Shown piece after piece: positions 1 to 64,000 of a stretch of 64,000 nt of DNA. The stretch comes from Euglena gracilis. Taxonomy: Eukaryota. The stretch is from the NCBI GenBank assembly GCA_039621445.1, contig CP154954.1, positions 19,206,642 to 19,270,641 of the forward strand, in the 5' to 3' direction. A program made the position numbers and the translations under genes. Position 1 is the first letter of the stretch; every line of letters begins with the position of its first letter. Below the pieces are notes generated by a model. That model saw only the letters and a program-made list of their open reading frames with translations. It ran no database searches and was not told the origin of the DNA.

Positions 1-3000
1 TACAAAACTTAAAACCCGCTTCATTCCGGAGGTTCAAATGCACAAGTGACTGGGAAGAATTCTCAACCATTTGGACATCATTCAATTCCTCGGCAATGGG
101 ACTACAGACAAAGTCGTTGGAATATTGACATTCAACTGCGGCATCACAATCCGCTTGACCATGAACATCCCAAACACGGTATATGCCTTCCCCCTCCAAT
201 TAGAAACAAGCCTGCGAGAAGAGTTCTCCGTTGTAAAATTTAAATGCTAGGCATCTGCGGACATAAATAGACACCAGCAGAGCCCAAGATGGTACATCGT
301 GGCATTTATGGCACAGATAATCCGAGGGCATATTTCGAAAATGGTCACTTCGAGAAACCCATTGGGTCGCATTCGTAATATTTTAAACAAAAATAAATTG
401 TATATTGTCGGAAATCCACAAAAAATATTCAGTGATTCTGAAAAAGAAGCCTTCCAACTCCCCTGCCCTTCTGTATCAGCATTGATGAACTGAAAAAAAA
501 GCTGAAATGGTAAGGTGACAAAATTTTTTTGTATATTTACAGGCAAATAATAAAACATAATTGTGTCCAATAACTATCCCCACTGATACCCACCGAATGA
601 AAAATTTCTCCAAACTAGATATGACTGCAAATCACTGGCGCACTCCCTACTTACTGACTAGTGACCACAAATGGAAACTTGATCGAGGGGACAACTGGGG
701 AGAGCGAACCAGAATACAAATAATCTGGGAGAGCATCCGTGGTCCCCACCAATAGAGCCTTGATGAAGGGCATGAAATAAGACAGGTCGTCTTTGTTGTC
801 GGGGGCATTGACTCCTTTACAAACTAACCCAAAACGCACCTACCTGCTTTCAGAAAATGCAAGCAGGTAGATGCATGCACACATACATACAACACATACA
901 TACACACACACACATACATACATACATACATACGTACATGCATACATACATACATACACACACACATACATACATACATACATACATACATACATACATA
1001 CATACATACATACATACATACATACATACATACATACATACATACATACATACATACATACATACAGACAGACAGACAGACAGACAGACATACGTACGTA
1101 CGCACATACATACAAAAACCAAAAACAAAAAAATACTTCTCTGAGACATGCAAATGCAAAAAAAGAGATGCAATACACAATATTTCTCAGCAATTGTTGA
1201 AACAACTGTGTGCAAAGAGTTCGCGTCTGACTGGGGGTGATAGGACAGGGAGGCTGGCGCAAGGTACATCTAAACACGCCAGTGTTCTTTTCAAGACAGG
1301 GGGGGGGGCTCCTACGCACCCAGGGGGTACCCCTCCCCCCTCCTGGTTTGCACAAACAACAACAATGGAAAAAATCAGGATTTATAAGAGGTTACGGAGG
1401 AGCACCTTCCCCAGAAGAGCAGCGGTCCGGCAGACCCACCCATCCCCTCCTTCCCCTTGGGGCCCAACCTTAAAACTCCCTGATACATGCATGTGTTTGT
1501 GCGACAGACACTGTTGATTACGCAAATTTTGACAAGACATCTTGCAACAGGGACTAGATTTTCTCCCAAGCCCAAGTAAGTCAGCCCATGCTCCTCCCGG
1601 CAGGCTCTGTTGCATTCATGGTACAGCCATGACTCCAGGCTGTACAGCCACAACAGCGCCTTCGTGATCTGGTTGGGGTCCTCTTTGGCTGCCACACAGA
1701 GCGGGCGAACGTCCCGAACAGAGCGCAGGACCATTCCTTAAAAGCCATGGGGGGTGTCGAACCAGCTGGAAAGGGTAATGTGGCTAGGCTGGAACCCCCA
1801 AAATAAGCCCCCCAAAACTGGACAAAATAACCAAACAAGGTTAAATCCAGATGGGATGCAGTTTTGCAATAAATAAATAAAAATCAGAAAAAATCTGTTT
1901 TCTAATAAATCAAAAAAACCTCAAGGCCACCATTCTTTGACCATTTGCCTCCTTGTTTCGAAAAAAATGTCTCGATTTGTCTTTGTTTCAGCGGGTGGCG
2001 AGGGGGGGGGTGGACTGCAGCTCACAGTGTCCTGGGAGGAGAGACCCAAAGGGGGAGGGTGGACAGCGAAAGCCCTGAAAGGAGGAATGATGAAGGTGCT
2101 TTGCGTGGGGTGAGCTGCTCCATGCGGATGGCGAAGCCATCAGTGTCTGGGGGGCCGAGACCCCTCAGCTCGCCGTATTCCGGAACCAGGGCTGTGTAGT
2201 CTCGGGGGTCGGGCAGGAAAGGAGGGTGCACCCCAGCCCTACGGCCAACTCCTCCCGTGGGGTCGGTTCCCATTTGTTGCCTATGTGGAATGGCATGGGT
2301 GATCTCTCTCAAAGAAAAAGATGGATGACTATCAGAAAGGGGTGCCAAAGGTTTGCACACCAAAGTTAGAACCTGCCCCTGAAGGCAGAGATCTGAAAGA
2401 GGACACATGAACCCCATTTTTAACAGCCCCCCCTGTGTAGTTGTGTAGCATAATCGTTACAACGCTGTCACGGTGCTGGCTGGCTGATACAGTGCTCCAT
2501 ATCGAAAACGGAAACCTCCTTTTACTGGAGAGCACCATTCAAACTGTAACAACTTTGGATGCTCCAGCAAGCAACGCGAGAGAATCATACATACAAACTT
2601 GGTTAACAACACTGACGAGGGAGGGATTGGTCAAAATTGGGGGAATCTCGCACATAAATTTCATAATTTCTTGGGTGACAAATGGCACCTCCCAAGGCGG
2701 AGGTGAAAGTTGAGGTGCAGCTACCACCCAAATGATTTTCATCAAAGAAAAAATGCTTTTTCTACGTCCCAGCCCATCGGAAAACATCCACCGTAAACAC
2801 GACATAAAACCAACCAAAATTTCCGTGGACAATCTGTTGAATGGAACACACATCTGTTCCACAGCTTTAAGAAGATGTCGTCTTGGCTGTAATTCACAGT
2901 ATGGATGAGGTCGACGAAGTTAGTCCCCACCGCAGACATGGGAACTGAGCACCTTCGAGATAAGACAGACGTGTGCTTTGCAACTTTCCAACTGGGCAAA

Positions 3001-6000
3001 ATACCTCCCCCCCCCCCCTTGTCTAAGCACCGGAAAAGATGGGTAAGAACCGGGGGGGGGGTGCTTATTTTGCCAAAATATGGGTAAGAACCAGGGGGGT
3101 GGTGCTTGGACAAGGGTGGTGCTCAGACAAGGGGGGGGTAAGCTTCAAAAAAGGGGTTAAATATGCAATAAATTTGGAAATAAGCCAGAAATTTTGCCAT
3201 TTTCCCTCCATCCCTTTGTGGAGTATCATCATTTGAAAAATATTTCAGGCTGTGCTCGGCAATCTTGTGGCCGACACCAGCAGGGAATTTCTAATGGAGC
3301 GCCAGGGAGTGGGTGCAGCCGGCAGACTGGAAAAAAAGGGGCTGGCAGGAACCCCCCCACTTTAGGGGTGGGGGTTTGAACTGCCAGGCTGGACCTTGTT
3401 GGAAAAAGCTCAAACTGTGCTTGAATACATTTTTTTAGCCAAAATTTTTGAGGAAATCCTCAACAAAAAATATCAAAAAATCTCAGGCAGTGCATCTCGC
3501 ACTTAAGCTTTTTTCTTTGTCGATGTGCGCAAATGCGCACATTGACATTTTTTATTTTATTTACAAAAGTGACAAGACATGACCCCAAAAACCCCGAAAT
3601 CTGAGCAGGATGTGGTGGGGTGCCCCCGGACGCGGAGATGAAAACAAAGACTTTGGCAAATAGGTTGCCTAAGAGCTGGTGTCACTGCAGCATATGATTT
3701 ACATAACACCCAGCAGGTGTGTTTAGAACCCAACAATGGCCGTGTTATTAACTCAGAATATTGACTGAACGATTTGGTGGGGTGTGCACTATCCTGAAGC
3801 AATACCCTGAAAGCTGTGTGAGAAATTGGTGGTCGGTACAGGCAAATGTGCAAATATGTGGTGTGCGCAAATGCATAAAACAACCGTTAGCGTAACTGTG
3901 AAAAGGGCCATGTGCGCCAACTGCAATTGATGTGCTTGTAATATTGTCCAAGCGGTTGGTTGTGCAAATGCGAAAACAGACTTTTTGGGTCGGTTTGCAC
4001 ATCTGAGCACACCAACCTCGTGTGAAACTTAACACACGTGCCATTCAGAGGGTGTGGCACTACTGCAGTTTGGAAATCCTTAAATGCGAGATATTCTGTA
4101 GAATTTAAACACAACAGAATGACCAGCCTGCGGGCCCAAATTTGGGCATCGGCAATTGAAGCTGTGAAAAAAACATTTTTAGCCCCTGAAAAAATCAAAA
4201 TAAACAGCATTTTAAGATTTTATCCTGAAAAACTGAGTTTAGAAATGCCCTTCACCCTAGTACTTTGGTCCGAAAATGAGGCACAACACATTGGCTGAAA
4301 ATGGATTTGTCTGCTGACTTGAAAATCCCAGTGACCCGGGGTCACATAATGCAAATCTCGAACAGTCCATTGTATATGTGGCATGTGCACTTCCACTCCT
4401 TTCGTGACCAACTTCAAACACCTCCGCACGTGCAACATAACTTCAGAAAGCAAGCAAAGGGGTGGACCTACCACCTCACCTCCAGAGCATCACCTGGCGC
4501 TGGCAGTTTTCGCACAGGAAATGGGGGGAGGCGGTAATGGGCTTTTGGTGTTTTTGTTGGTGTTTTTTCAGCAAAAAAAATACACGCAATTCCCGGGAGA
4601 GCTGGGGTCAAGGATGAGAATCCGCTCATATTTTGTCCAGTCCCGCTCCTTCGCGCTCTCACCCTTGTAGCGCTAGTGCTCAAATTGGTTTTTGGTCGGT
4701 TTGTGAAAATGCGCACATCGACCAAAAAAAGTTCAAGTGCGAGATGCGAGATTTCCATCTCAGGGGATGCGGTGGTCCGGGGAGTGCAATAATGCAATAA
4801 AAAATGTGCATCAGGAAACCCCGCAACCACGGCCCTCTCCTCCGGCGGCACAGGCAGCCAAAGGCGCTCTGGGCGAACGTCGGGGACTCCCGATGCCGCT
4901 TCCGCGGGGCGACCGGGACGGGTTGGGCCGGCCCTGCCATGCCGGCAGCGCCTGGCTGGTCCTGGAGGCGCCTCACCAGCGGGGCCAGGCCCTTGCCGCG
5001 GCAAACGAGACGCTCGCGGCCGTCTCGGCTGAGACGGCCGCGGCAGGTGGCGCCGGCACCGTGGAATGACTGGATTAAGAACCTGTCGACTATTAATTTT
5101 TTGAGTGACTTTCACGCGTTTTGTTGTTGAAAAAAAAACACATTTCTCCGAGTTATATATAAATATTATATTGTATATTGTATATTGTATATTATATATA
5201 TATATATGATGTATTATATATGATATATTATATATTATGTATGATTTATGATATATGATATATTATATATTATGTATTGTATATTATATTATAAATGATA
5301 TATTATATATGATATTTGATATATTATACATTATATATATTATATATGATATATGATATATTATATGTGACATATTATATATTATACCTACCCCCCCCCC
5401 CGGGAAACTGTCACCTGACAGGTTGGCCAGTACCTGCCCGTTTCCCCGGCGGGACCCCTGCAGATTCCCGGGTAAGGCCTTTCAACGGAAAAATCAATGA
5501 AAAATGACCCTGACAGGTTGGCCGGTACCGGGGATGCTGACAGTTTCCCGGGCGGGACCCTGACAAGTTCTCGAGCATGAAAGTTTCCCGGGGGGGGGGG
5601 TAGGTATATGATTTCTGATATATGATATATTATAGATTATGTGTTAATATGTATATGTTATATTATATATATATGGTATATATATTAAATATTATATATA
5701 TATTATATATTATATATATTACATATATTATATGTATTATATATATTATATTATAGATAATATATTATATATTATGTATAATCAAAATTGCTTATTAAAA
5801 TACTTCAAACCCACTGCCTTTTCATTTCCCCTTTCCCCTGTTGAAGAGGGGTACTTTTCTGGTGGGATGTGAGAGTATGGAAAAAGCGAAGGTTGCATGC
5901 TTTGTTTGTTTCACATTGCACTTGGAAAGATAGAGACAGATAGGGACGGTTAAACGTGAAACTTGGCAGGGGAGGCAGTGGAAGGCGTGGTCCAGACTAG

Positions 6001-9000
6001 AGGGGGGCTTGGTACCCAACCACCCAATGGGGGGAGGGGGGCTCGGGGGACACACTCTGGGGGGCATAATTTCGAACTTCTCTCGGGTTCGGGGCAAAAA
6101 TAGAACAAAATCCCTGGTGAGCGAGGTGGAACCGCCCTCCCCCTGGCCAGCCATAAGCCATAAGAGAAAACCCTCTGCAGGAGTCTGGGAACAAATGCAA
6201 CTCAAAACACATCGGAAACTCAAAACAATCAAATGCTATTTGGCAAGAATGATACCCCCCCCCCCCCCCCCGCCAGAAACTCACCCAATACATCAGCGAG
6301 GTATGTGACAGACCATACGGACAGGACGTCCCGATCAACGACAATGAAGTTTCTGACCGAGCGGCGTCGAGGCCATATCTGGCAGGATCCGGACCTGGGT
6401 CCGGCAGGCTGGGGCCTGGGTAGCACCGCCTGGGGCTCCAGCACGCCGTGCCGCACAAGGTCCTCCTTCGTGGCCAGCGACAGCGCTTCCAGCGAGTTGT
6501 ACCTCGGGAGGGGGGCCGCCGAGGGTCCGCTTCCAAGGTACGGGGGTGAAAGCACACAAATACACAGCTCACACACATACTGGAAATTCAGTTCTTTTTT
6601 GTAAAATAAGAATATTCAGGTTTCTGCAGGAATTTTTTTTGCGCTTGATTTTTTTTTAAAAAAAATCATTTTTTTAAATTTTTTTTTAAAAAAAGAACAG
6701 CAGTAGCACATTCTTTTGCATCATAGGGGTGAGGGCAAGCTTTTAACACGCTTTCATCAGGCATAAGATACCCTTGGGAAGCTGCTTCTGTCTGAAGCGG
6801 CACAAATTGCCCAGCTATAAAACTGACAGGGCGAACTGAATTATCTCTTAAATATTTTTCAAAAAAATGCCCAAACCAACCCCCTTTTCTTGTCTGTTCC
6901 ACTTCCAATTCCGCCAACTCTCTTGGAAGGGGGAACAAAGGTTTCCAAAAAAAATTGTATTGTTTTTTCTTTGGTGTGATGTTGGGGTCGAAATTTGGTG
7001 ATTGAGAGCGATTAAAGCAGCTGCCAGGGCCCTCCTTTTAGAACACAGCAGGTGTTAGCGGTCTAAAATTAGGCTTTTGAGGAGCAAAGCAAGAACAGTA
7101 AAGAGGGACAAATCAGAAATGGGTGAACCCCCCCGACTGGTAGGTTGTGTCAATCAGAAACTTTCGGGGGAGTGTCAAAACAGCATCTCTTTCCCTCAAT
7201 ATCATCTTGAGAAACCGACCCATGTTTTTTTGGTGGTTTTTGCGGCATCACTTGTGAAACACCCGCCAACACAACAGGCAACAGCAACAACAGCAACTGA
7301 GACACGGTAATACCTACACATTGCAAGACGATACCAAAACACAAGCCTGGGAGAACGTGTCCGCCTGCGGGGTCCGAAAAAGGGTATGTGCCAATTGCTT
7401 AAAAGCCCAAAATCTTTTATGCCTTTGTCCTTTTTTTTACACGCATTATGCAGTGAATAATGGAAACCACAGAGACACCCCAATACCTATTCAAAATCAG
7501 GAGTTTTTCACCCAATTCAAACACTCCCATCATGACGCCAAAATTTTTCTGAAAAATTCTGGTGTAAAAAAACGAGACCTCAAAATAAGAAATTTGGGGC
7601 GCTTTTTGGGGTTAAAGAAACGGTCAAAGCATGTCAAAAAAAAAAAAACGTGGGGTGGGCAATTAGCGCCGCCTGAGACAGAGGTCAGAGGCAACTCCCA
7701 GCGAGGTATGGTATGCGTGAAATATGCGAGGTACAGTATGACGACTAATCCAATTAGCTTGTTATTTGCTTGATCATTCGCTCGGGTGATAAAAAAAATG
7801 TGAATTTTGTGAGCAGCTGCACCCCTGTTCAGCCCGGGCCAAAGGAATCGCATACAAGGACAAATGTAATCTATTCAGAAACGCCACCAGTTCCGCCGAT
7901 AACAGGGCATTGGCTACACGGCAGTTGGAATGGGGAACAGGCCATGCCCCCAGAGCACCTGTTGTTCAAAGACGGTGTCTGGGTATCCAACAAGGCGCCT
8001 TCCACAACCGACAACTGCAGGGACTACAACCATGTGCGGTTCAGCTGCAACGGAGGAACAGAAACCATGGACCCCGCTAAGCCCACAGCCAGGTTTCATT
8101 ACCCCAAGCAGACACATCGACCCACATGAACAAAACACAGGCACAAATGCTAAGGGCCTCTCTTTCCCCTTTCGGCACCTGGAGACAAACAATTTTCACA
8201 AGGCCCTGGGGGTAGGGTCGAACATGATGCCACCAACAGGGGGATCTTCTGCAAACCTCAGCTGTGGTGGGTACTAAAACCCAGGAGGGGGCAGAATCCG
8301 AAGAACAAAATATTCCTCGAAATTCAACGACCATCGTGGAAATGGTTCCCCAAAATGCCCCTAGCCTTACAATAAATAATTTAATTGCAATAAATATTTA
8401 GAAATACTTCTCTGGGGTATTTACTGACTGTGGGGGGTTTGGTCAAACAGGCTTTACCTGATTCCAGAACATGCCCGAAACCTTTTCGAGATTGAGAGAA
8501 ACAAATACCCAAAAGACACACAGCACACAAATGATCATGCGCAGAAGGTGATGAAGAGCTACTGGCAGAGCGGAGGCTTGGCCGGGGGCCTGTGGAAGTG
8601 GCGTCGGTTGCGGTGTCGGCGCCGGCGGCTGCGGGGCGGGGGCGGTCGGCCCGGGCTGGGCGGGGGCGGTGGGGTTGGGCTGGGCGGGGGCGAGGTCGTC
8701 CTGCCGGTAGTCCGCCACGTGGCACGCGTGGCGAGCAGCAGGGCTCCCGACCCGGACCATACAATTTTTTTACCGATTCCCGGGGGGGGTCACTCCACCT
8801 TTCAAAAAACCAGTCAGTCACTCCGAAAAAACCAGTCACCCGCCCGGGGGGGGGGTCAGCCAATGCTTAAGCAATTGACTGACCCGGACCCAACTTCGGT
8901 GGCTAACGTCAAGGGGGGACCGCTTCTCGCGCATGATCCCATTTAATAAAAAAACATCGCTGCGCATTGCGATAAGGCGGTATTGGGGGGTCCATCACCA

Positions 9001-12000
9001 TTACTCACCAAGGCCCATTGCAAGGGCAAATGACTTTCATCCCCATTCCAAAGAAACCGCTCGACCTGGAAATAAGTGTTATGGAAAAAGAAGGGAAAGA
9101 GGAGCAACCAGACCATGACGACAGAGGTGAACCGACTCCATCGGCTTCTGGGTGTGCTCGTTCAGATAGGGTTGTGGGGTGCTCCTTCACCCTGGTGAAT
9201 AAAGAAAATGGCAAATATAATTCACATAAATCTCTTCCTGTTAAATCCTGTTAAGCTGGAGTATGTCTCGAAAAACGTCACAATGTCCAAAAACAAAAGG
9301 GAATCACAACGAAACAAATTGAGGGCCTTCATGCGGACATACAACACGACAAAATCAATCGAAAAAATTAGTGGGTGTGAAGGGCCTTGGGAACATGCAC
9401 ACGAAACCACAATGCATCCCAGAGCCATGCTGGCCGCGCCCAGAACGCCACAACCGTACCATTGCTCACTGACAACCTCTGGGAAGACGTCAATTACTTC
9501 TTTCAAAAAGGCTTCTAAAGAAATGGCCGGACAAGACTCCAACCAACGCTTTGTAATAGGCAACATGCAATTTTGGCCTAAAATACTAGGATACAAAGCA
9601 ACACAAAATGTCCCAAAATGAACCACAAACCACACTTATCCAAACTGTTAAGACGAGATTATGCGAAATTCATGGGGGAACCGTTATGGGCTTTAAAATA
9701 GCATGTCTGTTTCCCACGAAGCGCCGCCCGGAAAACCGACTTTCAGCTTCTAAATAATACCTCTCCGTTCTAATACAATGATCTAAAAATGCAGAATTAA
9801 ATAAGCAGAAACATTGGAAAACCCACAAAAGTGATGAATTCGAGTTGAAAAGAAGCACATGCATTGTGTAAAAAAAAAACAATCCAAAATAAAATGCCTG
9901 GCAAAAGAAAAAAATCCGTCACCGAGGAAGAAAAGCAGGGCGGTCCTTAAGCAAATAAAAAAAAAAAAACTCCCCTGTCCCAGCACACTCAGTGAAAAAT
10001 ATACAGGAAAATGGGCAAGAAATTTTGGCATTTTTCAGCGAGAACAGGTCGACATCAGGAAAAAAATTGATTCCTGGCACCCTTGGACCATCGTCCGTCC
10101 ACCCAAACCATCAAAAACTGTGTTTTTCGACTGTTTGGTTTTTGTCCCCGTTCAAGTTCCAGTCTGGCCCTTAATCGGCACTTTGGCCGACTGGGGGGCG
10201 GTCCTTAAGGAAATAAAAAAAAAAACTTTCCTGTCCCTTGAGGACCGCCCTGAAGAAAAGGCCATCGCAAATTCCCAGGATGGGGGAACCCTCAAGCAAC
10301 GGGATGGCCACGACACTCGGACCATCTCTGGGTTTCTAAAATCCACGTCCGTCACGACGCCTACGTTGCCAGCGCCACCGTCCTGGCCACCCCACGACCA
10401 AGTCTCGCCCCGGACAACGCGATCGGTGGCAGGGATCTGGTTGCGCGGGCACCGTTCATCCACCTCCGGGGTTTTGTCCCCTGGGGGTCAACGAGTACAA
10501 AAAGAGGAGACAAATAGGTCCGTTCGAGAACCTGAAAGATCGGCAAACACCGAGGCCCTGACTGCCTGACGGTTGTTTTTTTTTTTTAGCTCAGGAAGGA
10601 CCATTTCTGAGGGAAGAGGGAGGCATGGCGAGAGGGAAGCTGTGAGTGCAGGCCATCCCTTGGACACAAGAAGCAATTGGTCAAATTTTGATGCCCTTGA
10701 TAAATTGTCCTTGTGTCCACAACCTGGCCTGCACTCATAACTTCCCTCTCGCCATACCTCCCCCCTCCCTGAGAAATGGTCCTGCCTCGGCTGAAAAAAA
10801 TCAGTATTTTGTTCCCGTCCATTTACATAAAACTCAAAAGACCGAAATCTTCAAATCCACTTTAATGTAAAACTTGAGGTGAGAGACAATTTTCCAGTGG
10901 ACCAGTCAGTGAGGTTGGAGGTTAGATATACTTCTCCAGAGATGACAGCGGGACAGGGGGGGGGGAGGTGGCAACAAGGACTCCTGGTTGCCAACGTGCC
11001 ACCGTGTATATCTGTCGCCCCCAAGCTTAAAGCGGCAATAGTCATCTGTTTGGATTGGACGTAAAAGGACAGCAAAAAGCAAAATAGGGATTGCAGACCA
11101 AACATCAAAATGACAAAAACACCCAATAATCAATGGCTACTTGGAGGAAACACACCACCAAAAATATATTCACAAAATTACGGTCGTCTTTTTTGAAAAC
11201 TGTGTTGTACCACAGAAGTCAGAGAAGCTGCAAAGAACAAAATCAAAAGCTAGAACATTATCAAGTCTCATTTCCCCAAGATCGTAACGAAAAGATCGTC
11301 TCTGACCGGGGGGGGGGTTCGTTGGACTAACCCGGTCGTTGGACAAGGGGGGGAGGTAAGTCACCCACACCAAAACATCAGAAAGATCCAGAATTGAAGG
11401 GGTTCAATGCAGCTTCATTCGAGGGCCACGTCGAAGCAGGAGCGCGGCAGCCAATACGCCTCGGACCCGCTGAACTCCACCAGGTGCTTCTCCTCTGCGG
11501 CGTCGTAGCTCTTCAGTGTACCCATGCTCGAGGCGAGGGGGGTGAGCAGCGGCCCATCCGACGGGGGCAGTCCAACGGGTGCATACGGGACAACCACATG
11601 ACTGGTCCATTGTCTGAATCTTGCAATTCAACGCCGAGCGCATTCTTGAACTACGTGGTGTGTTTGCAACCATGCTGCATTTGCACCATGTCCGTAAAAC
11701 AATCGAAACTTCCATGGAACCATGCCATAACCATACCATAAAACCATACCAAAACCATACCATAAGCCACACCACAAAACCCCGGCTTCCGCACACAATC
11801 CATAAAAACGGAGCACGTCCCTCGAGCCTTGAAGGTGCAGTCTCAGGACAGGGGGAAGGGGAGGGGAACTGCCACGGCCATTGAAAACAGATGCACACGC
11901 GGCCACGGCATCTTTGATCTGTTCGGCGTTGCGCATTCGCACCCGGTAGCCGGTAATGGAAGACCCACCGCCCCCTTCGATGGTGGCTGTTGCAGGAAGC

Positions 12001-12469
12001 TTGGGTTGGCAGATCGTGATACAACGGGAAAACAATGTCATCTTGAAGCCACCTCTCCGCGTGTTGAGGAGGAATCAAAACCCAGGGAACCAACCGGCCC
12101 CTGGCCCCCTGGCCCCCTCGCCCCCCCCCCCCTCCCCACCCTTCCGACCAGAGCCCCTGCCCCTGTCTCCGGCACTGGCAGCCAATACGGGATGTTCATG
12201 ATGGGACAGGGGGTATTGATGGGAAGAAACTGGGGGGGGGGGGGACGTCGGTCCCCCCGGCATTATTTCTTTAAAGGCGCCTGCAAAAACCTGAAAACCC
12301 TTTTAAAAAAAAGCTGAAAAAGTTTTTGGCCAAAATGCCTTAAAAACCTCAAATAATCTCAAAAATGCACCCTGGAAAATTTCTGAATTTCAACCAAAAA
12401 AATAAAGGGTCCTACTTCAGGTCCCGTGTGGTTTCCTTTGATTCCCCACCATTTCCGAGAGAGAGAGAG

Positions 12470-12511
<42 letters not shown>

Positions 12512-12754
12512 CAGAGATGATAGAGAGAAGGAGATAGGAGAGAGGAGATTAGAGGAATAGATAGATGCTAGAAGAGAGAGAGATAGAAGAGAGATAGAGA
12601 GATAGATAGAGAGTAGATAGAGAGATGCTACAATATACAGACAGAGACAGATAAGACAGACATAGAGAGTATATCGATATAGATATATATATAAGAGAGA
12701 GAGATAGAGAGAGAATAGTATATAGAGAGATATAATATAGAGATATATAGAGAT

Positions 12755-12836
<82 letters not shown>

Positions 12837-35915: not shown

Positions 35916-36006
<91 letters not shown>

Positions 36007-37831: not shown

Positions 37832-37867
<36 letters not shown>

Positions 37868-42077: not shown

Positions 42078-42135
<58 letters not shown>

Positions 42136-47821: not shown

Positions 47822-47854
<33 letters not shown>

Positions 47855-51009: not shown

Positions 51010-51041
<32 letters not shown>

Positions 51042-54000
51042 TGATTTTTTTTCAAAAAAATTTGAAATCAAGTGCAGGATTTGAAATCAAGTGCAAAAAT
51101 TCAAGAATATTTTTTGAAAACCAGCGCAGCACACTTGGGAAGGAAAACTTCCACAATTAAGGCTTGAATCAGGAGACAGAGTTTGGGTTAGACCCACTGC
51201 ACAGCACGGGGCACTCCCCCCGTCTCATCAGTTGTTCCATTTTGCACACACGAGAAGCGAACTGTTTTGTTTACCTTTGCATCTTCAGTGCTCATAATCT
51301 TTCAAAGAGAACCAATCTAGAAACACCCTACACAATTACGGCCGCATATTTTTTCTCTTCGTTTTTGTTTTCTCTCAACACACCATCACTGTAACCGCCC
51401 AGATTGTAATTTTTCCCGGTTGGATCCAGGGTGTCTCGGCCATTATTGTCAATTTTAACATGCCTTTAAGGCCAGCAATGACACCTCGGAGCGTTGGCAA
51501 CAGTTGATGTTTGGACACACATAGATGGTCATTGTCAGGAAGCCCCGCTTAGTGCCCAGCCGAAAATCGCATGAAAAAGCCCATTATAAGGCCCTTGGAG
51601 CCATCGGTGCCAGGGCGATAGCACAGCCCACACAAAAACCCATCCTCCTGCAGGGGGGAGTGCACTCTCCCCCCTCACACTTTGGGGGGTACGACCCCCC
51701 TTAAAAAGAAACCTTGGTGTGTGTCGGTGTCAGAAGCTTTTTGTTGAGGGTGGACCTGTCCTTTCTTAGTTCTGACCGACCCAAAGAGGTTTGGGGGGGG
51801 GACCACGTTTTGGCGACCGTGAATTGAGGGGCAGCCTGGGCGGCAGCAGGATTTCGTGCTCTCCCGGGAAGGCGCTGCAACCACCCAAATGGATGAGCTT
51901 GTTGAAGAACGCGCGGGGGATGAGGATGACGAAGAGGTGCACCGTGGGCATCAATTCACACTCGGGCCCTCGGGGGAGGGGGTGGGCACCTTTCCTGGGC
52001 CAAAACCCACCACAGAGTTTTCTGTCGCAGGACGTCGCAAATGCACGCATGTGGGGGCCGAATGATTCACTGTGGATACTTCGTCCTTCACTTTCAAGCA
52101 CCTATAGTTGACCCTAGATTTTTGCCATTTTCGGCCATTTTTTCCTATAGGGGTAAAATTACCTTAAAACCCTTTCATACCAACAATGCAGTAGGGAAAC
52201 TAAATAGTGGGACACGAATTTTGTGGGTCATACCCAACCCCCAGCTCCAAAGCCTCTGCCAGGCCATGGAATGTGGTGATGGTGTGTGCACACTGGCATG
52301 GCCCCAGCCTGCTCCGCTGCAGCACACTGTGATAAATTTAGGCCAACCCTATGCGAGCAGGTCTTTTCCATTTTCTTACCCTTTTGAACTCGAAGCTAAC
52401 CCAGCCGTAGGTAAGGGGACGAGGCGGCTCACACTGCAGTGAGTGGCATTTGGACCCCAACTTTGAACAATGCAAGTTGGCAATCCCTGTCAACGTGGAC
52501 TGATGGTGCGATGGCCTCGACATGCCGACCAATTTGGGCAAAAGGAGGCCAAAAATGGTAGTTTCGCCCAAATTGGTCGTCATGTCGAGGCCATCGCCCC
52601 ATCAGCCCACGTTGACATGGGTTGTTTACTTGCATTGTTCAAAGTTGGGGTCCCCTTACCTGAGGCTGGGTTTGCTTTTGCAATCCCAAAAAGGTCGGAA
52701 AATGGAAATACCTGCTCGCATAGGGTTGGACTGAATTTTGCACAGGTTGCTGCAGCAGATCTGGCTGGGGAACTGCTGCGTTCGACAATTTTCGACCATT
52801 TTCGGCCATTTTCGGGACCCCCACCTGTAGAGCCCAAAATTTCATTTCGGCCATTTTCGGCCATTTTTACTGTAGGTGCTTGTTAACTTTTCAAGGTGGA
52901 TTGTCGCAAACAACTTTGCGTTTGAAAGCCACCAACCCACATGCACTCACCCATCCAAAGCCAGCCGAAATTGGCCTAAAATCCTCAAAATCAATCACAA
53001 CCCTGCCTGGTTGGGACTAAAGTACCTGTGGGTTGGTGGGCAAGCCGCAAACCGGGGGGGAGGGGTCCACCTGCCCAAACCCACCCAGCCACTCTCGAAA
53101 TTCCACTCACCCATCCCCCATGGGGGGTCACGCAGGGATTGAGTGAATGGATGGCCCCGAAGGTCGGGTTGCCATCCTGGAGGCTGGTGGAGGTGAACCC
53201 TGACCAGACAAACTGCTTCAACCCCAGGGACTCCGGCGGGCACTGCGGCGATGGGATGGTTTCGTGTGCACTGTGTGTATCTACCCCCCCCCCCCGGGAA
53301 ACTGTCACCTGACAGGTTGGCCAGTAATGGGGACCCTGACAGTTTCCCGGACGGGACCCTGACAGGCTCTCGGGCATGACAGTTTCCCGGGGGGGGGGGT
53401 ATAGAATGCTGATGAATGCACCGGAAAAAAGGGCTGCAAAGGGCAATTGTGGGAGTGGGCGGTTCCCGCAATTGCGCAATTGGTTCTTCTGCACAAAGGA
53501 AATGGTCCATTCAAATTATGGATTTGCACAATTGTGTGGTTATCAATAATTGTACATGAGCAATTAGAAGGATTTTTGTGTTCAAAGGCTGGGACACTTT
53601 TAGTTTGGGTGGAAATGGTCTGTTTCCACTCAACAAATCTTTCTAAAGTCAAAATTTATGGGTATGATGAATACATTTTGCAAATCTAGGTGCCGGTTAT
53701 TGGTGCTGCAAAAAAAAACGGTGCTTTGTGACTTCGCCCACCAAATCAATGCCCCCCAATTTTGGGGCCCAAATTTTGTCCCGAAAATGTGGGTACAAAT
53801 CTTAATATCTGACAAAAAATTATGGAAAAAATCGACGTTTCTGGATCATCTGCCGTCCAAAAAAAAAAGCAAAATTTCAATAGAAAGTGCAATAAATGAC
53901 CCCAAAAGGGTTCTTGGTTGCTATTTTGGGTCCTATGGGAGTTGGAAAATTTTCGAAAAAAATTAAGCAGCTGTTACACTCCCAAACATCACCTCCCTCA

Positions 54001-55420
54001 GGACGGGACTTTGGGAGAAAAAAATAATACCCCGCAGGGTATTATTTGGGGTGCAACCACAGTTTCTCGACATTGATTGTCCAGCTTCCACCAGACTGGC
54101 TTTGAAAGCTCTTGGTTGGTTTTGAATTGGTTTCTTTGTGCAAATGCGCAAAATGTTCCTACATGCAATTGTGCAAAGGCGAACGTGTTGGGGTCAACAA
54201 GTGTCAACATAAGGGGAGTGATGTGGCCCAGAACTTAACTACATTGTGGTGGAAATCCTTCTGTGCTCTTTATGCCTTCACCTACCACAATTTTCAGAGT
54301 CATACACCAGTCTTTTTCCTCCCATAATATTTTTGCGTGTGGAAGCCAGGCTTCGTTCAAGATCCCCGGGGAAGGGGTCCCCCCTTGGGAGAATGGGGGG
54401 TTCACTTATCCTGGGTATTTTCCTGTGTCAAACTGGGGGCAACAAATCAAGCTGCATTTGTCTGAAGACAGTTTCAGGGGGTAAGCTGTTTTCTTGTTCC
54501 TTTTCACGCATTTGTGCAAAGGAACCTGAGCAATTTTTTTTTTCAATGCCGGTTGGACACCGGCACTCTGTGTGTGGGCCGTCACCATTTTTGCGGGGCT
54601 GAACCGCAAAGGAAAGGCCAAATTCGATGTTCTTGAACTTCCAAGTCATCCAGTGCAAAGGGAGGAGACAGGTCCGGATAAGACAGGTCAGTGGGTACAG
54701 AATGCTGAAGAGAGTTTCCTGGGCAGTTGGCGGTTAAAAGGAAAAAAATTGACAAAGGTGACACAAAAAAAAAACAGAAATGAATTTTTTCAGAAATTTG
54801 TAAGCAGCAAAATTGCCTTGATTTCCAAAAAATTTTGGAGACAGGGCAGGGGGTACAGGGGGGGGGGGGCATCCCTATGGGGTTAGGGTTAGCAGTTGAG
54901 GACATTTTGCCGAGGGGGGGGGTAGGTAAATGTGAGATCAGCCGCCTAAAGGAAAGATGGGAAACACAGAGGACACAAAGCAGTTGTTTTTTTTTTTCAC
55001 CAATGAAAAAGAACATTAAACACAGATAATTGTTGTGTTGCATTGAAATTCCACGGATTGAAGCATGGTGGTATTTGGCATTGGTATTGGGGCATTGAGG
55101 TTGTATTTTGCTGGGTTTGTTGTGGTTGGATGTAAAGGTGGTTGGGTTGTTGTGTGGGGTTGGGTTGGTTGGGGTGGGGGTTCCCTGGAAACTCGAACCC
55201 AGTTAGGGAGTGTATTTTGCTGTTGAGGTTTTGTAGTTTTACGTCAGGTGTACTTTTGCCGAGAAAGAACTTTCTGAAGCGAGAAAGTTCTTGGTGGATT
55301 ATCTGGACAATTACGGCTGTGTATCAATTCCGGAATCCCTGGCCTTCTCCACATACAGCTGCAGTTGGCTGGGCTGTAGAGTGGTACGGCGGTACAGCGT
55401 GACAGACTGGTCAGAAGGTT
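50128..55420 (-). CDS. Gene A ART catalytic exons (55345-~55420, 53157-53219, 51842-51943, 50128-50230)
   Basis: Spliced reconstruction: [109 protein letters not shown], containing the R, STS and ExE motifs. Confidence 0.85.
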
Positions 55421-58400
55421 GCAATAATTTGCTCAGTAGCAGATCGCAACTTGGACTTTGGTGGCAAAATAGAGAACTGTCGACGATACACCATCCAGAT
55501 GTGTTTGAAACATTTTGTATGCCACACTGTTAATGTCAGGGTCAGGGTTAGGGTTAGGGTTAGGGTTAGGGTCAGGGTTAGGATTATGTCATGTTTACCC
55601 TACCCCAAACCTGCCCCTAGCCCCAGTCAGAACAATCACCCAACTCCTATCCAAACCCTAACTCTACCCAGGCGGCTGGGATGTCAGCGCCATTCCTTGC
55701 AGCAAACACCCCCCCCAAGCGGCGCCCTGAACCACCTTCCTGGGCATGAATATTCAACATGTGCAAAAGCTCCGCTTCCTCCTGGCTTTCCCACCCCCTG
55801 AAATTCAGGCTGCTTGGTGTTCAGGTTATGACTGGATATGATATGTTGTGGCTGCCCATCACTTCATTTTTCATTCAAAGACAACGGCTGTTTTTTGATA
55901 TTTTTTTCTTTGCTTGGGGACAATGGTATCAGGGTGTTTTTGGGACCGGCACGCCATCAACCCAACCCCCAGAACAGGGGACTTAGAGGTTGGGTGGGCA
56001 CTGTTAACCAGGTTTTTGAATAGTGCTGAGCTCTTTGTCTTTGCGGTTTTTGACTGTAAAACCGATAATGTGGCTTGGACGCTAGGCAGAGGCGGAGTTA
56101 TGGGAAGCAGTTTTGGTACGTTTTGATGCTCATTTTCGGCTCAAAAACAGTTTTTCTGGGTCCGGGGGGCAATTTTTTTCGATTTTTTTCGACTTTTTCG
56201 ACCCGTTTTTGACCCAAACTCCATGGGTCTCGGCCCAAAAACGGGGGGCGGGGGGGGGGGTTGAAAAACGCTCATGCTTCGCTCTTGCCCACGAAGGGAT
56301 AAGAGCTCAGCGACCCCCCACCTAATAGAAGCAAGGGGCCGCTAAAAGCGCAGGGTCCAAATAAAAGCGCACCCCCTGCTTTCGAAGGCCGAAAGCGGCG
56401 GTCCGCTACCAGGAAATCAACCAGGAAATCCTTACTAAGGATATCAACAAAAATCGCGCAGGCAGGGTCCAAATGGAAGCGCACCCCCGGAGGCGACGGT
56501 CCACTGTAAATGCACCTTTCTATTAGGGGGCTAGGGGTTAGATGGGTGTATCCCCTATCTTTACCAAACAACGCCAAATCCTAACATCATTTGAATGAAA
56601 CGTACTCCACCCGTCAGTGTTCATAAAGGCCTTCAGAACAGCAAAGCCCAAGGTTGTGCATCGTGGCATTTCTGACACAGATGCTCTTTTGACGTCTGAG
56701 CCCAAGTTTGAAAAACAAAACCATTTCCAGGAGACCAAGTGCTGGTGTTGAGTCCAAATCCGAAGGTTATTTCAGTGCATATGAAATCGTTTGGCGTTTA
56801 CAGGAGGAGCCGGCGAGAGCATCCGGTGGTCCCCACCAGCAGCGCCTTGATAAAAGGCATGAAGTAGGTGAGGTCCTCCTCCTTGTCTCTGGCATTGGGT
56901 GTTTATCGCTGATTGCACAACCACTGTCCGCGGATCTGTGCTGTCCTGACACTTTCCCATATGTCCTCTCCTTGAACGCCATTGCCTTTAGTGTTCATTG
57001 GGCTTGGGAGGCGTACTGCCTTCTCACCTTGGTATTTGTCCTGCCGCTGTCAACCTTTGTATTTTGCTGCAAGCGATGGATGTGACACAGGAATGTAATG
57101 ATCGGAGAAGAACATGGACACGGGCGTTTGCTGTTATCAGACGATCTTACCAGTACGCTTAGTCAGCCAATGTTCTTCCCGGCAGGCTTTGTTGCACTCC
57201 TGGTACACCCAAGTGTCCACGGTGTAGAGCCACAACAGGGCCTTCGTGATTTGGTTGGGGTCGTCTTTGACTGCCAAGCAAGGCACAGTGGAGGGAACCA
57301 GGTCAAAAGATGCAACAGAATGGACATGTTGAATGCCGTTAACATAAAAAACGAAACAAAAATGCACCTGGAAACTAAATATAAAGGCTATTTTGAATCA
57401 TTTAGAAAGGAAATCATTAAAATACTGTGCGGCTTTTGTTGTTTGATCCTCCAATGAGACACCCAAAAAACACCTGTTCCAGGCAGTATGGGAATGTATG
57501 TTGTCCCACAAGCCACCGGACGCCCCTACATACCCACCATCATACCAAGAATTTTTCTAGGACCGGAGGGCAGCATATCAAGGTTTTTTTTTGAGGCTGG
57601 GGTGGAAGGGAGTTCCCCACACTCACCAGGGCTCACCCCCTTCCCCTCCTGAAGGGCAGAGGGAGGGTCCAGGGGGGATCAATTTAGGGGCAAAAAAAGT
57701 CAAAAATGGCCAAACCCCGGGGGACCCACAAAGCAAAGCCCTTGGTGTACCCCCGAGGTTCCAGTTGCCCCCCCCACCCTCCCCCCCACCGTTGTCCACC
57801 GGTCCTCTAGGGTGCTGCCCAGGAAATGGCTAGCCGTTTCAGTTTCAGCGTGGCAGCCCTGCCTGGGGTATGCAATTGCATGCGATTGCTGAAGGCGTCG
57901 ATGTCGAGGGGCTCCAGCCCTTTCCGGTCGCCGTACTCCGGAGCCAGGGCTGTGCGCTGGGCTGGGATGGGGGGGGGGGGCGCCCCCCCCCAGCACCGTG
58001 CAAAGCACCGACGCTGAAAGAAACCAATGACCTAATAAAATAATAAAATAATAAAATAAAATAAAATAATAAAATAAAATAATATAATAATAGTACAAAA
58101 TAATATTTAAAAAAAATAACAATATGTGGGAAAAAAGGGGGGGAAGCAACGGGGTGGGAGATGGCAGGCCCCCCTGCCAACCCCCGCGCAGAGCCGAGGT
58201 GGGGTTGGCACCGCCTGTTTCTTCAGCCTTGTGCCAGTCGCACACCGCTGCGCCACAAACTCAGGAAGATGTCGTTCCCGGTGCAGCGGGCAGAGTGAAT
58301 GAGTTCGAGGAAATTGGGCCCCGGCTGGAGCATGGCAGCGGAGACCCAACGAGTGGCAGTGACATACCGGCAAACAGGAGGAAATGAATGGACCACTTCA

Positions 58401-61400: not shown

Positions 61401-64000
61401 ACTGCAGGTGGGGGTAAAAGAAATACTTGTGCCTGTGGCGTCATGAGCAAGTTTCAGCTCTGGGTTGGATAATGAAGCTGGATACTTGGCGGCGCGCGCG
61501 CTCGCACACACACACACACACATCACACACGCACACACACAAATGTTCGGAGAGTTTGATAAAATTAAGGCCGGATGAACTCCCAACTTTACAGTGGTTT
61601 AATAACAAAAAAGGGTGGCATGGGTCAAATACTTTGGTGAGAAACCTTTAAATTTGAAAATTTCCTTAAAACAAGAAACCACCCCCGAATAATAAAAACC
61701 CGTGGGTCCCGACGCTGGTGCCAAACATTGATTCACTTAGTGGCCCCCCAGGTTCAGTCCGGATCGCCCGAAGGCTTGGCCTGGCATATTGTTTCAAGAA
61801 TTTTTGGCTGATTTTCGGCAGGTTTAAAGTGGGCTTTGGGCGGGTGGCTTGGTGGAGGGGGTTAGTCACGGGTGGGTTTTTGGGGGGGGGAAGTGGTTGG
61901 GTGGGTTTGGGACCGGGAAAAAAAACAACCAGTATCGAAAGCCCACCCACCCACCTACATCCTGGAGGCAGTGTGAGTGAATCCATGGTGTTCAATAAAT
62001 AAATTAGGAGTTTGATTGCAGGGGAAGACCAAGCTTACCAAGCCTACAACATTCCACGCTTCCCAGGCCAACCAACCCAAAATATGCTCCTCATGTCAAA
62101 GAGACAAAAAAATTCACAGAAAAAAACAAAGAAGAATACAAAACACAAAACTTGAAACCATGCAAAGCAAAAATGGACTTTGATTTTCAAATACCATTTC
62201 TGAAAGCATTGCACAGCAGAGATGCCCCAGTAAAGGCTTTTTTTTAATCCCCCCCCAAAAGACCCTTGGCCGCGTGTGACCCTCCGACGAGGAGGTAAGC
62301 ACAATGGAATTTCCTTGGGAAAAAGTTTTTGGGATGGAATTTTCTCCCAGGGGTATCAAACCCGCCATATTTCTCATCATATTTGGCCATTCCTCAAGAA
62401 TTATCGTGCTTTTGCACAAAACAATTTCGGCTCAACCCTAACCCAGGCCCACACCAGCCCAAGGGGGGGGGGTCCTCCAAGTCGGTAGAAAAAAGGTACT
62501 AGGTGGAACCCCTCAGAGGGTGGAGCTGAGAAAGAAGTTTCCATCCAAAATTTTATGCATTTCCCCCATTTTTTGACACCTTTCAAAAAAAATCAGCATT
62601 TTTTTCGCTTGGCGTCTGGCACCTCGTCCGAAACTTTTTTGACAACTTCCTCGTCCTTTTTAGGATCTGCAAATAACAGAATATACAAAAAAAATAATAT
62701 TTTGCACAGAGAATATGAACAAACACACAAGAGAATATGAATAAATATATGAATTCTTAAGAGAATATATAAATTTTTTTCTTGTATTGCAAACCTTGAA
62801 AAGCGCAGGCTTCTCAGCTGTAAACTTTGTTGGGTGCTTTGCGACCTGCTTTGCAATCTGCAGATCCGACTTCCGGTGGGGCCGGTGACAAATCTGTCTG
62901 TCGGTAATTTGAAGTGTAGATGGAGTTGGGGGCAGCATACCCCTCAAGCAACCGAAAAAAATAAATAAATGCATAAATAAATAGAAAATAAATGCATTCT
63001 TAAAAAGATGTTAAATCGGAAAAGTATATGGGATTTCTCTGAGGTGGCAAGTAGTCTCCTCTGCTTCCAAACATCAATAAAACCAAACGGTGTGCTCAAC
63101 CAGTTACTCTTGGAAAAAGCAATAAGGCAGCAGACTTGGTTTTTTTTTTACAAGGGCGGGCAGACCCCCCAACCTGATCCCTCAGAACTCCCTGGAGCTC
63201 TGCCCACCATCTTTACCTAGGGTTTACCTGGGGTTTAGGACTAGCTAAATATCTGAGAAGGCGTCCGCCGAGTCATTGGGCACAGGGGTCGGGACAAAAA
63301 AATCAAAAAAATATGACCCCCAAAATACGACCCCCCTGGGGGTTCCCTTCCAGCAACAACCCCAAAAGTAAGAGGTCATGATCTTGGGGGAGGGTAACCA
63401 ACAAATGCAAACTGCTTCTGGACTGGCTGAAATGGACTGTATTATTTTAAGGACGCCAGGGACTCTAGAAGAAATTGCCTATACCAGTCACTACTTCCAC
63501 AAATGGGTAGGAGGAGTAGATTTTCGAATGACTCCCCTTCACCCTTGGCAAATTTCTCATATGATCTGGCCCAACCTGCAACTACACATGCCATATACCT
63601 TGAACGGTATGAACGGTACGTTATTAATTAACAGGTTGCATTCATAACAATGATTGGCAGAGGGAAGTGCTGATGAGGTCCATTCCGCCACGACACTTTG
63701 ACCGACTGGGGGCCGTTGAAATCCACCTCGGTCACCACCCCCACGTTGCCGGCACCCCCGTCCTGGTCACCCCACTGCCACGTGGGCCCACGGATGACAC
63801 GGCTGCCGGCAGGAGCGTGCTCCAGTGATCAATTTTTTGTCAAAACCGGAGGGTGATGGAGGCACTGGAATCAGTATTTTCAGGCAGAGCACATGTTGAA
63901 CGAAGGTTGCATCACAGAGAATTTGGAAAAATGGATGGCATACAACCCCCTGGTTGCCAACGTGCCAACGAGTGTACTTGCCACCATCGGCATTGAAGCG
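50128..64000 (-). CDS. Gene A (multi-exon, 5'-partial): MIB/HERC2 - SAM - ARTC-type mono-ADP-ribosyltransferase
   Basis: Collinear homology with gene B; MIB/HERC2 at ~63660-63817; SAM at ~60305-60420 and 59338-59410; ART motifs; stop codon at 50128. Confidence 0.85.
50347..50619. mobile_element. MITE family 1 copy
   Basis: Same termini and subrepeats as 5385-5606. Confidence 0.85.
52334..52738. repeat. ~400-bp foldback (long imperfect inverted repeat), intronic
   Basis: 52347-52420 is the reverse complement of 52651-52727, and 52455-52542 of 52562-52651 (imperfect matches). Confidence 0.85.
53220..55344 (-). other. Nonconventional intron, 2125 nt, 13-bp terminal stem
   Basis: GGCCAGGGATTCCGG ... 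CCGGAGTCCCTGGGGTT; CAG at +4..+6 and CTG at -8..-6; joins the ART exons in frame. Confidence 0.85.
53282..53401. mobile_element. MITE family 1, short copy
   Basis: TAC(n)GGGAAACTGTCA ... TGACAGTTTCCCG(n)TA. Confidence 0.85.
55535..55582 (+). repeat. Interstitial telomere-like (TTAGGG/TCAGGG)n
   Basis: About 8 tandem hexamers. Confidence 0.8.
63660..63817 (-). CDS. Gene A MIB/HERC2 domain exon
   Basis: [43 protein letters not shown]. Confidence 0.9.

Follow-up and report, generated by a model that had tools for sequence, protein, structure and literature searches.

A stretch of Euglena gracilis DNA 64,000 nucleotides long (contig CP154954.1 of assembly GCA_039621445.1, positions 19,206,642 to 19,270,641 of the forward strand), the whole of which is called the window below, raises the question of whether a nuclear gene can join an ADP-ribosyltransferase (ART) of the toxin type to the recognition modules of a ubiquitin ligase, and what such a protein might do. 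The window contains two tandem, same-strand paralogous nuclear genes of the Euglena gracilis type, designated gene 1 and gene 2, which lie head to tail on the minus strand and together span about 57 kb of the 64 kb. For gene 2 the order of modules was deduced as SPRY, REP-like, ZZ-like, SPRY, REP-like, MIB/HERC2, REP-like, MIB/HERC2, proline-rich linker, SAM and ART. The first-pass annotation, made from the sequence alone, had described two collinear paralogues ending in SAM and ART domains, and this was confirmed on the minus strand by self-comparison of the open reading frames (ORFs) and by tblastn.

Two paralogous genes and their transcripts

The self-comparison of translated ORFs paired collinear minus-strand segments at 56.6-64 kb with segments at 0.3-11 kb. 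Between gene 1 and gene 2 the MIB/HERC2 exon showed 68% identity over 44 aa, the SAM-like exon 73% over 30 aa, and the ART exon (1579-1698 versus 57161-57280) 72.5% over 40 aa. The ART exon retrieved two transcript-derived proteins, P0002 (eukprot EG_transcript_755, 1232 aa) and P0003 (EG_transcript_2083, 887 aa), the naming scheme of which is that used in the Euglena gracilis transcriptome paper (PMC6366073). In each of these independent proteins, which are 72% alike in the ART region, the recognition array, the SAM domain and the ART are contained in one continuous ORF.

By tblastn, residues 1-1106 of P0002 align in order with the minus strand over 39 or more exons, which begin with the Met at 42769 and reach about 744. 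The agreement with gene 2 amounted to 955 of 1050 residues (91%) in 40 ungapped segments over 42 kb. Gene 1 shared 168 of 233 residues (72%) with P0003 and, because the identity is only 72%, it is taken as a further paralogue. The exons and intron 1 of gene 2 are as follows.

31561..42769, minus strand: exons 1-6, start Met at 42769 and first SPRY (P0002 aa 1-190), by tblastn; 42769-42642, 35899-35764, 35547-35521, 35132-35037, 33265-33140, 31617-31561
35900..42641, minus strand: intron 1, about 6.7 kb, between the matches of exon 1 and exon 2
26745..30824, minus strand: exons 7-9, first Mib-repeat-like (SH3-like) domain X0 (P0002 aa ~216-296), by tblastn at 95-100% identity; 30824-30636, 27681-27640, 26813-26745
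25161..26101, minus strand: exons 10-11, Cys/His finger with ZZ-like spacing, by tblastn; 26101-25985, 25235-25161
21083..23965, minus strand: exons 12-16, second SPRY (P0002 aa ~365-520), by tblastn at 90-100% identity; 23965-23872, 23522-23434, 22756-22682, 22075-21959, 21148-21083
19592..20661, minus strand: exons 17-19, linker (P0002 aa 518-562), by tblastn; 20661-20611, 19821-19795, 19648-19592
15522..18802, minus strand: exons 20-25, Mib-repeat-like domain X1 (18802-18725, 18463-18310) and first MIB/HERC2 (17957-17926, 16711-16637, 16508-16455, 15605-15522), by tblastn and Pfam
8578..14350, minus strand: exons 26-31, linker (14350-14328), Mib-repeat-like domain X2 (11990-11907, 11570-11421), second MIB/HERC2 (11022-10990, 10424-10302, 8736-8578) and proline-rich linker, by tblastn and Pfam
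4875..8240, minus strand: exons 32-35, SAM-like domain (P0002 aa ~917-1005), by tblastn; 8240-8211, 7896-7830, 6503-6421, 4979-4875
744..2939, minus strand: exons 36-39, mostly helical N-terminal part of the ART (P0002 aa 1006-1106), by tblastn; 2939-2859, 2180-2111, 1685-1588, 797-~744

Gene 1 enters at 64000 within its array and runs to a stop codon at 50130-50128, repeating independently the order MIB/HERC2, SAM and ART.

62874..64000, minus strand: end of the array, with linker 'KYTRWHVG' at 63985-63944, MIB/HERC2 at 63807-63664 and exon 'YRQTDL' at 62930-62874, by blastp and tblastn against gene 2, P0002 and P0003
58556..60378, minus strand: SAM-like domain, by tblastn against P0003 and P0002; 60378-60310, 59435-59337, 58663-58556
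50128..58333, minus strand: complete ART, by tblastn and translations; exons 58333-58244, 57938-57867, 57271-57170, 56887-56804, 55454-55338, 53218-53156, 51942-51841, 50268-50131, among them the catalytic exons with R ('LYRRTT', 55454-55338), 'FTSTS' (53218-53156) and E-x-E ('GEHEILLP', 51942-51841)

The Pfam scan of the window took in 300 minus-strand ORFs (33 aa or longer, 1-33 kb) and, on both strands, 124 of 189 ORFs with a length of 95 aa or more; the other 303 minus-strand ORFs of 33-64 kb (unless among the 124) and the short plus-strand ORFs stood outside it. Within this scope and by tblastn, nothing recognizable as another gene turned up between the array exons and those of SAM-ART. 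Long open frames occur in all six frames of the window, and in the 124 long ORFs no Pfam family exceeded any curated cut-off on either strand; comparison of the window with Rfam matched no family. The first-pass annotation had allowed that transcripts might place the N-terminal modules and the ART in separate genes. P0002 and P0003, being continuous ORFs, speak against this, and the exon order in the window matches them.

The recognition modules

MIB_HERC2 (PF06701) was detected directly in the window, on ORF 10155-10487(-) with 37.9 bits and on ORF 16583-16873(-) with 35.4 bits, against a cut-off of 33.5, so that this part of the earlier description holds above the Pfam threshold. Two MIB_HERC2 stretches were recognized in P0002 (E 6.5e-19), and a sequence search of the PDB with the same protein matched MIB1 (4xi6) at E 5.9e-12, besides HECTD1 and C3. 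A search with the N-terminal array yielded two more E. gracilis transcripts, P0162 and P0163, which contain the array and a SAM domain without ART; outside the euglenids, the nearest matches to the array are animal Mind bomb proteins (E 8.5e-12 to 8e-5), the similarity being confined to MIB/HERC2. The C-terminal region of P0162, about 250 residues, consists of tandem 'DPSQKQ.EPSLMKHSPKDGDVFRSNAY' repeats.

The SPRY domains were recognized by fold. The AlphaFold2 model of P0003, built on a 53-row alignment with a mean predicted local distance difference test score (pLDDT) of 76.4, shows a confident beta-sandwich at residues 30-190, which VIA-align superimposed on the TRIM67 PRYSPRY domain with Z 22.6 and a root-mean-square deviation of 1.9 over 157 of 164 residues, followed by the HERC1 SPRY (Z 18.6) and the NHR/NEUZ structure 2e63 (Z 17.3). 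Foldseek matched the same domain to the TRIM9 SPRY at E 7.5e-11, and the TM scores to SPRY matches were 0.81-0.85. For the second SPRY (P0002 aa 365-525) the ESM Atlas features gave 0.95, with 24 of 30 hits in SPRY or Neuralized clusters, and the homologous part of P0162 is modelled by AlphaFold2 as a beta sandwich with pLDDT 75-92. On these models the presence of SPRY is clear, and the SPRY-like domain of the first-pass annotation is thus upheld by the fold (Z 22.6) and by the Atlas (0.95). The matches of both fold searches, Foldseek and VIA-align, were filled by SPRY and ART and barely reached the other parts of the protein.

A small unit precedes each MIB/HERC2 and occurs in 11 copies in four Euglena proteins. 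In the P0003 model a beta-alpha-alpha-beta4 pattern appears twice, as small units modelled with confidence (225-297 and 400-463), and the pattern is seen in the P0162 model too. A hidden Markov model (HMM) built from the 11 Euglena repeats scored X0 with 76.6 bits and X1 with 110.3 bits, and its weak matches in animal Mind bomb proteins fall exactly on their REP domains. Comparison by hhalign of the 11 Euglena repeats with eight REP domains gave a probability of 77.9% over 53 columns (E 1.8e-5), the controls reaching 1.8% and 8.8%. The first ESM Atlas hits were SH3_15 clusters (0.86 and 0.85), which serve as a lead only. The repeat is therefore a probable relative of the Mind bomb REP (SH3_15) domain, as judged from profile similarity.

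The Cys/His finger (P0002 aa ~318-355) has the spacing C-x2-C-x11-C-x2-C-x4-C-x2-C-H-x6-H, which is ZZ-like. Its ORF in the window, 25919-26191(-), matched C1_2 at E 0.0045, below the Pfam cut-off; in the paralogue P0162 the finger scored 18.8 bits for ZZ (PF00569; cut-off 21.4) and 26.8 bits for FYVE (cut-off 27.8), and hhalign gave 32.8% with the Mind bomb ZZ and 2% with a RING control. Its identification as ZZ is weak. Hence, of the earlier claim of Mib-repeat-like and ZZ/C1-like domains, the Mib repeat became probable and the ZZ part gained little. Three of the modules, namely the REP-like repeat X0, the finger and the second SPRY, are absent from P0003.

The SAM and ART domains

The SAM identity is moderate. 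Residues 577-635 of P0003 form five helices with pLDDT of about 90 in the AlphaFold2 model, and SAM_1 (PF00536) reaches 23.3 bits in the paralogue P0163 and 48.7 bits at the same position in the relative P0008.

The C-terminal domain of P0002 exceeded the Pfam cut-offs of both ART (PF01129; 25.8 versus 22.3 bits) and ADPrib_exo_Tox (PF03496; 25.1 versus 23.4 bits). P0003 remained below them (16.7 and 19.0 bits, respectively), and no single exon among the scanned window ORFs gave an ART match in Pfam. The domain is modelled in P0003 (650-887) with pLDDT above 90, and VIA-align placed it next to 6drh_B (Z 16.4), XopAI (16.1), HopU1 (15.3) and rat ART2.2 (13.8), with SpvB, C3, ExoS and C2-I at Z 12-13; the Foldseek hits were C3, Plx2a and HopU1, and the best PDB sequence matches were C2-I (0.0083) and C3 (0.05). 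The catalytic residues are intact in gene 1 (R in LYRRTT, STS in FTSTS and E-x-E in GEHEILLP) and in P0002 (R1129, STS 1154-1156 and E1193-R-E1195), and the R, S/L-T-S and E-x-E motifs are retained in P0002, P0003 and the 699-residue relative P0004. The conservation of P0003 residues R784 and E850 in the 53-row alignment is 90% or higher. These models make it clear that the C-terminal domain has the R-S-E (C3/ARTC-type) ADP-ribosyltransferase fold. No PARP family, RING or Ank match was obtained in P0002 or P0003 at E<=0.1 in Pfam, so that the toxin-like ART in place of a RING, as first suggested, stands on both Pfam and fold.

The E-x-E motif is that of enzymes with an arginine acceptor (the C2/iota/ARTC group), Q-x-E being found in C3. 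Arginine is the likeliest acceptor here because the ARTT motif is E-x-E.

A hydropathy scan detected no hydrophobic N-terminus (the sequence begins MADRLERVLQD...) and no membrane-span-like segment, the top 19-residue hydropathy being 1.74, within the SPRY strand region. Therefore the proteins are probably cytosolic.

Selection on the two copies

The ratio of nonsynonymous to synonymous substitutions (dN/dS, Nei-Gojobori) between gene 1 and gene 2 was 0.22 over 82 codons of the recognition exons and 0.31 over 137 codons of the ART exons; dS was 0.8-1.3, near saturation, the test has low power with two sequences, and one out-of-register SAM exon pair was disregarded. These values indicate that both copies have been under constraint, with no sign of diversifying selection. 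The suggestion in the first-pass annotation of a diversifying family thus found no support in the two ratios, read with the low power and near-saturated dS just given.

Relatives and previous descriptions

A near-length search with the ART region retained only P0002, P0003 and P0004 among 438 candidates, P0004 carrying Cys-rich repeats besides its SAM and ART. When a profile was made from these three ART regions and run against 1.84 billion representatives, 357 sequences fell within E<=1e-3, of which 51 reached E<=1e-10 and 7 reached E<=1e-30. Among the named relatives are Eutreptiella gymnastica, Entosiphon sulcatum, Euglena longa, Arcella intermedia and the rotifer Didymodactylos carnosus.

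Pfam was run on 147 listed representatives of the 357, other than P0001, P0003 and P0004. Neither MIB_HERC2 nor SPRY was found in any of the 147, and among the 150 listed representatives MIB/HERC2 was present only in the E. gracilis protein. In 5 of the 147 a SAM domain immediately precedes the ART, RCC1 is present in 2 and WWE in 43, and the other modules encountered were LRR, Ank, UQ_con, UBA, EF-hand, WD40 and TPR. SAM-ART is joined to different N-terminal modules in RCC1 proteins of Euglena longa and Entosiphon, in an LRR+Ank protein of Arcella and in P0004 with its Cys-rich repeats. P0056 of Didymodactylos carnosus belongs to the 43 WWE-ARTs; one WWE-ART, from Didymodactylos, also carries an E2 domain (UQ_con), and UBA is carried by a separate protein. 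On these domain matches, toxin-type ARTs are broadly linked with modules of the ubiquitin system or with readers of ADP-ribose, a connection as yet uncharacterised.

Since the array occurs without ART in P0162 and P0163, and SAM-ART occurs with other modules elsewhere, both behave as mobile modules. By the sequence comparisons made here, their combination is seen only in E. gracilis, and the architecture is one among those of a larger group of multidomain R-S-E ARTs in protists, so far uncharacterised. The literature searched contained no description of an ART-MIB/HERC2 fusion or of Euglena ARTs, and domain-architecture catalogues may still list the fusion. The main text of the E. gracilis transcriptome paper (PMC6366073) contains no mention of ADP-ribos, HERC2 or SPRY, and five of its supplement files do not contain the four transcripts. 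The architecture, which the first-pass annotation did not recognize, is accordingly undescribed in the literature searched, and it does not stand apart from the wider protist set.

Introns, repeats and the region between the genes

Of 38 intron junctions of gene 2 only one admits a GT-AG solution consistent with the protein, the remaining 37 having none, and many junctions can be drawn at 2-8 equally good positions. Such junctions are the signature of euglenid nonconventional introns (PMC6221363, PMC3935182, PMC4770533). Gene 2 is interrupted almost wholly by introns of this kind, which fits a euglenid origin.

The GC content of the window lies around 0.45-0.55; an AT-rich microsatellite block stands out near 28-30 kb and a GC-rich one at 36-42 kb. 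The latter lies in intron 1 of gene 2, where the GC content is 0.58-0.66 and an 892-bp tandem duplication (~36.2-37.9 kb), (GA)n runs and a 72-bp repeat (38548-38725) are found, together with long ORFs in all frames, including 39440-42238(+) with 932 aa and no Pfam hit. This block may be a repeat or mobile element. A short dispersed repeat (~5390-5640, 28790-29120, 50250-50640 and 52990-53520) occurs on both strands in introns of both genes, its copies being 60-90% alike in translation, and is probably an element similar to a short interspersed nuclear element (SINE) or a miniature inverted-repeat transposable element (MITE). Intronic microsatellites were located at 881-1114, 5167-5386, 27972-28314 and 29331-29684, comprising (ACAT)59, an array of the 7-mer TATATTA, an AATTAT array and TCTTC-type arrays.

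One intronic block, 275-324 / 56639-56688 on the minus strand, is kept between the paralogues in all three frames, and the conservation is therefore at the DNA level. The reading 'MPRC...' at 276-305 within it had been a candidate for the next exon of gene 2. It was rejected because the block resembles an intron of gene 1 in all three frames and, further, the real exon of gene 1 lies 1.2 kb further on. Between the two genes one additional feature was found:

46731-46826, minus strand: degenerate copy of exon 1, by tblastn 62.5% identical to P0002 over 32 aa, with an in-frame stop and without Met

This copy is probably a relic of tandem duplication.

Proposed function and alternative explanations

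The explanation preferred here, held with fair though not strong confidence and resting on sequence and fold comparison, is that the genes encode a mono-ADP-ribosyltransferase that acts on arginine in the cytosol, is directed to its targets by the recognition array and assembles by means of its SAM domain; it would mark specific proteins in signalling or trafficking, in a regulated way, rather than kill. On the model of Mind bomb and TRIM/SPSB proteins, the SPRY, MIB/HERC2, Mib-repeat and ZZ-like modules would recognize short peptide motifs in particular cytosolic proteins or membrane-protein tails. Oligomers of the enzyme would form through the SAM domain, and the ART would use NAD+ to mono-ADP-ribosylate the bound targets, most likely on arginine. 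The layout would be that of an E3 ubiquitin ligase with the RING replaced by an ADP-ribose writer, or the logic of a tankyrase built from different parts.

Several points weigh against this proposal. Gene 2 is cut off at window position 1 before its last ~125 residues, which include the catalytic R, STS and E-x-E exons, gene 1 has its N-terminus outside the window, and three short stretches of P0002 (aa 190-197, 360-371 and 721-726) matched no exon in tblastn. The matching transcripts are only 91% (gene 2) and 72% (gene 1) identical to the window genes and therefore represent alleles or paralogues, not provably these genes. On the side of the domains, Pfam gave no SPRY (PF00622) at E<=0.1 in P0002 or P0003 and no SH3_15 (PF18346) or ZZ at E<=0.1 in P0002; SAM_1 scored 18.8 bits in P0002 and 19.9 bits in P0003, below the cut-off of 23; the MIB/HERC2 units are modelled poorly in P0003 (pLDDT 50-66), and the finger region in P0162 has pLDDT below 50. 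The arginine specificity is deduced from E-x-E alone, and the solved structures nearest to the ART belong to toxins and injected effectors, which fits killing as well as regulation.

The last point leads to an alternative in which the protein is a conflict or immune effector: the array would sense a foreign protein (of a virus, parasite or endosymbiont), the toxin-like ART would disable the invader or the host cell, and the family would diversify by duplication and module shuffling. The nearest ART structures are indeed interbacterial or host-targeting proteins (6drh_B of a toxin/immunity pair at Z 16.4, XopAI, HopU1, SpvB, C3 and C2-I), the tandem gene pair has a relic exon-1 copy between its members, the N-terminal modules are shuffled across the relatives (RCC1, LRR+Ank, Cys-rich repeats, WWE), and SPRY and LRR are common immune recognition modules. 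This explanation is nevertheless regarded as unlikely. The dN/dS of 0.22-0.31 reveals no replacement excess in the recognition part (with low power and dS near saturation), the paralogues seen are few, namely two ART transcripts and the two window genes, and no partner immunity or antidote gene was seen by Pfam in the scanned ORFs of the window.

It is tempting to speculate on a whole euglenid system of E3-like marking, in which SPRY/Mind-bomb arrays, and in sister proteins RCC1, LRR/Ank or WWE modules, pick targets such as the tails of membrane proteins, SAM-ART writes arginine-ADP-ribose, and WWE-type readers encoded elsewhere in the genome decode it, the RING having been swapped for a domesticated toxin domain. 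Taken as a whole, such a system is quite unlikely.

An ART kept as a binding or NAD-sensing module, in a non-catalytic scaffold acting as an adaptor through SPRY, MIB and SAM, would agree with P0162 and P0163, where the array occurs without ART and so has ART-independent uses, and XopAI, among the best structural matches, reportedly lacks the catalytic residues. It is very unlikely in view of the intact R, S-T-S and E-x-E in gene 1, P0002, P0003 and P0004, the conservation of R and the catalytic E at 90% or more in the 53-row alignment, and the constraint on the ART exons.

The possibility that the SAM-ART forms a gene of its own next to that of the array, the long ORFs then being chimeric or read-through products, is highly improbable: two different transcript proteins share the same in-frame fusion, all exons are collinear on one strand and the scanned ORFs revealed no other gene between them, the MIB/HERC2, SAM and ART junction is repeated independently in gene 1, and other genera also fuse N-terminal modules to SAM-ART. 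In its favour are the differences between the transcripts and the window sequence and the trans-splicing of euglenid mRNAs, due to which 5' ends are not readable from DNA. Finally, a secreted or surface ecto-enzyme like vertebrate ARTC, with the array acting extracellularly, is scarcely credible, for although the Pfam ART family (PF01129) is typified by vertebrate ecto-enzymes and rat ART2.2 matches with Z 13.8 (200 residues aligned), the N-terminus is not hydrophobic, nothing resembling a membrane span was detected, and SPRY, MIB/HERC2 and SAM are typically intracellular.

Comparison with known systems

In eukaryotes, ADP-ribosylation inside the cell is generally attributed to PARP-type (H-Y-E) enzymes, the R-S-E enzymes being known mainly as bacterial toxins and vertebrate ecto-enzymes. 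The vertebrate ARTCs (ART1-5, with rat ART2.2, 1gxy) share with the Euglena proteins the Pfam ART family, R-S-E with E-x-E, and the fold similarity given above; they are small, secreted or GPI-anchored, single-domain proteins, in contrast to the multidomain Euglena proteins of ~900-1230 aa, in which no signal peptide was detected. The bacterial R-S-E toxins and effectors (Tre1-type 6drh, XopAI, HopU1, SpvB, C3, C2-I, ExoS) are the best fold neighbours of the ART (Z 12-16), with 14-21% identity. Unlike them, the Euglena ART is endogenous to a eukaryote, split by introns and fused to eukaryotic recognition modules, and it contains a conserved helical N-terminal extension common only to the protist relatives.

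The protist and rotifer multidomain R-S-E ARTs (RCC1-, LRR+Ank-, WWE- and E2-WWE-ART) are of the same ART clade and have variable N-terminal modules, many of them ubiquitin-linked; they differ in the absence of MIB_HERC2 and SPRY from the 147 scanned, and have automatic names only, for example 'NAD(P)(+)--arginine ADP-ribosyltransferase'. In animals, NEURL4 contains SPRY-like NHR repeats and is reported to have ART activity, HERC2 being mentioned as well (PMC8932523). An NHR/NEUZ structure, 2e63, matches the Euglena SPRY with Z 17.3; NEURL4 is not known to contain MIB/HERC2, SAM or an R-S-E ART.

Mind bomb (MIB1/MIB2) resembles the Euglena proteins in its two MIB/HERC2 domains, in its REP/SH3_15 domains, of which the Euglena repeats are probable relatives, and, weakly, in the ZZ-like finger. 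The Euglena proteins lack the ankyrin repeats and the RING, add two SPRY domains, SAM and ART, and have ADP-ribose, not ubiquitin, as the predicted output. The module order also differs, a REP-like unit preceding each MIB/HERC2 in Euglena and the order in Mind bomb being MIB-ZZ-MIB-REP-REP. In a Pfam scan of the kind that gave no RING in P0002 or P0003, zf-C3HC4_3 was detected in the animal protein P0164.

The overall plan is that of the tankyrases (PARP5a/b), in which N-terminal recognition repeats are likewise followed by SAM and a C-terminal ART-fold domain, and in which SAM polymerisation supports activity. The Arcella relative P0010, with the source name 'SAM domain-containing protein', even has Ank followed by ART, as in tankyrase. 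The tankyrases carry an H-Y-E PARP domain, form poly-ADP-ribose and recognize targets through ankyrin clusters, whereas the Euglena proteins have R-S-E with E-x-E (a predicted mono-ART) and SPRY, MIB and REP modules. The absence of a PARP domain and a RING in Pfam places them outside both the tankyrase and the Mind bomb families. They constitute a transcript-supported eukaryotic family in which a toxin-type ART stands behind a full set of E3-ligase recognition modules and SAM, within a broader clade of uncharacterised protist ARTs fused to WWE, E2, UBA, RCC1, LRR and Ank. MIB/HERC2 and Mib-repeat domains outside animals may also be useful for studying what these modules recognize. If active, the Euglena enzymes would be targeted intracellular writers of arginine-ADP-ribose, a natural swap of the output domain of a ubiquitin ligase and a tankyrase design reinvented independently.

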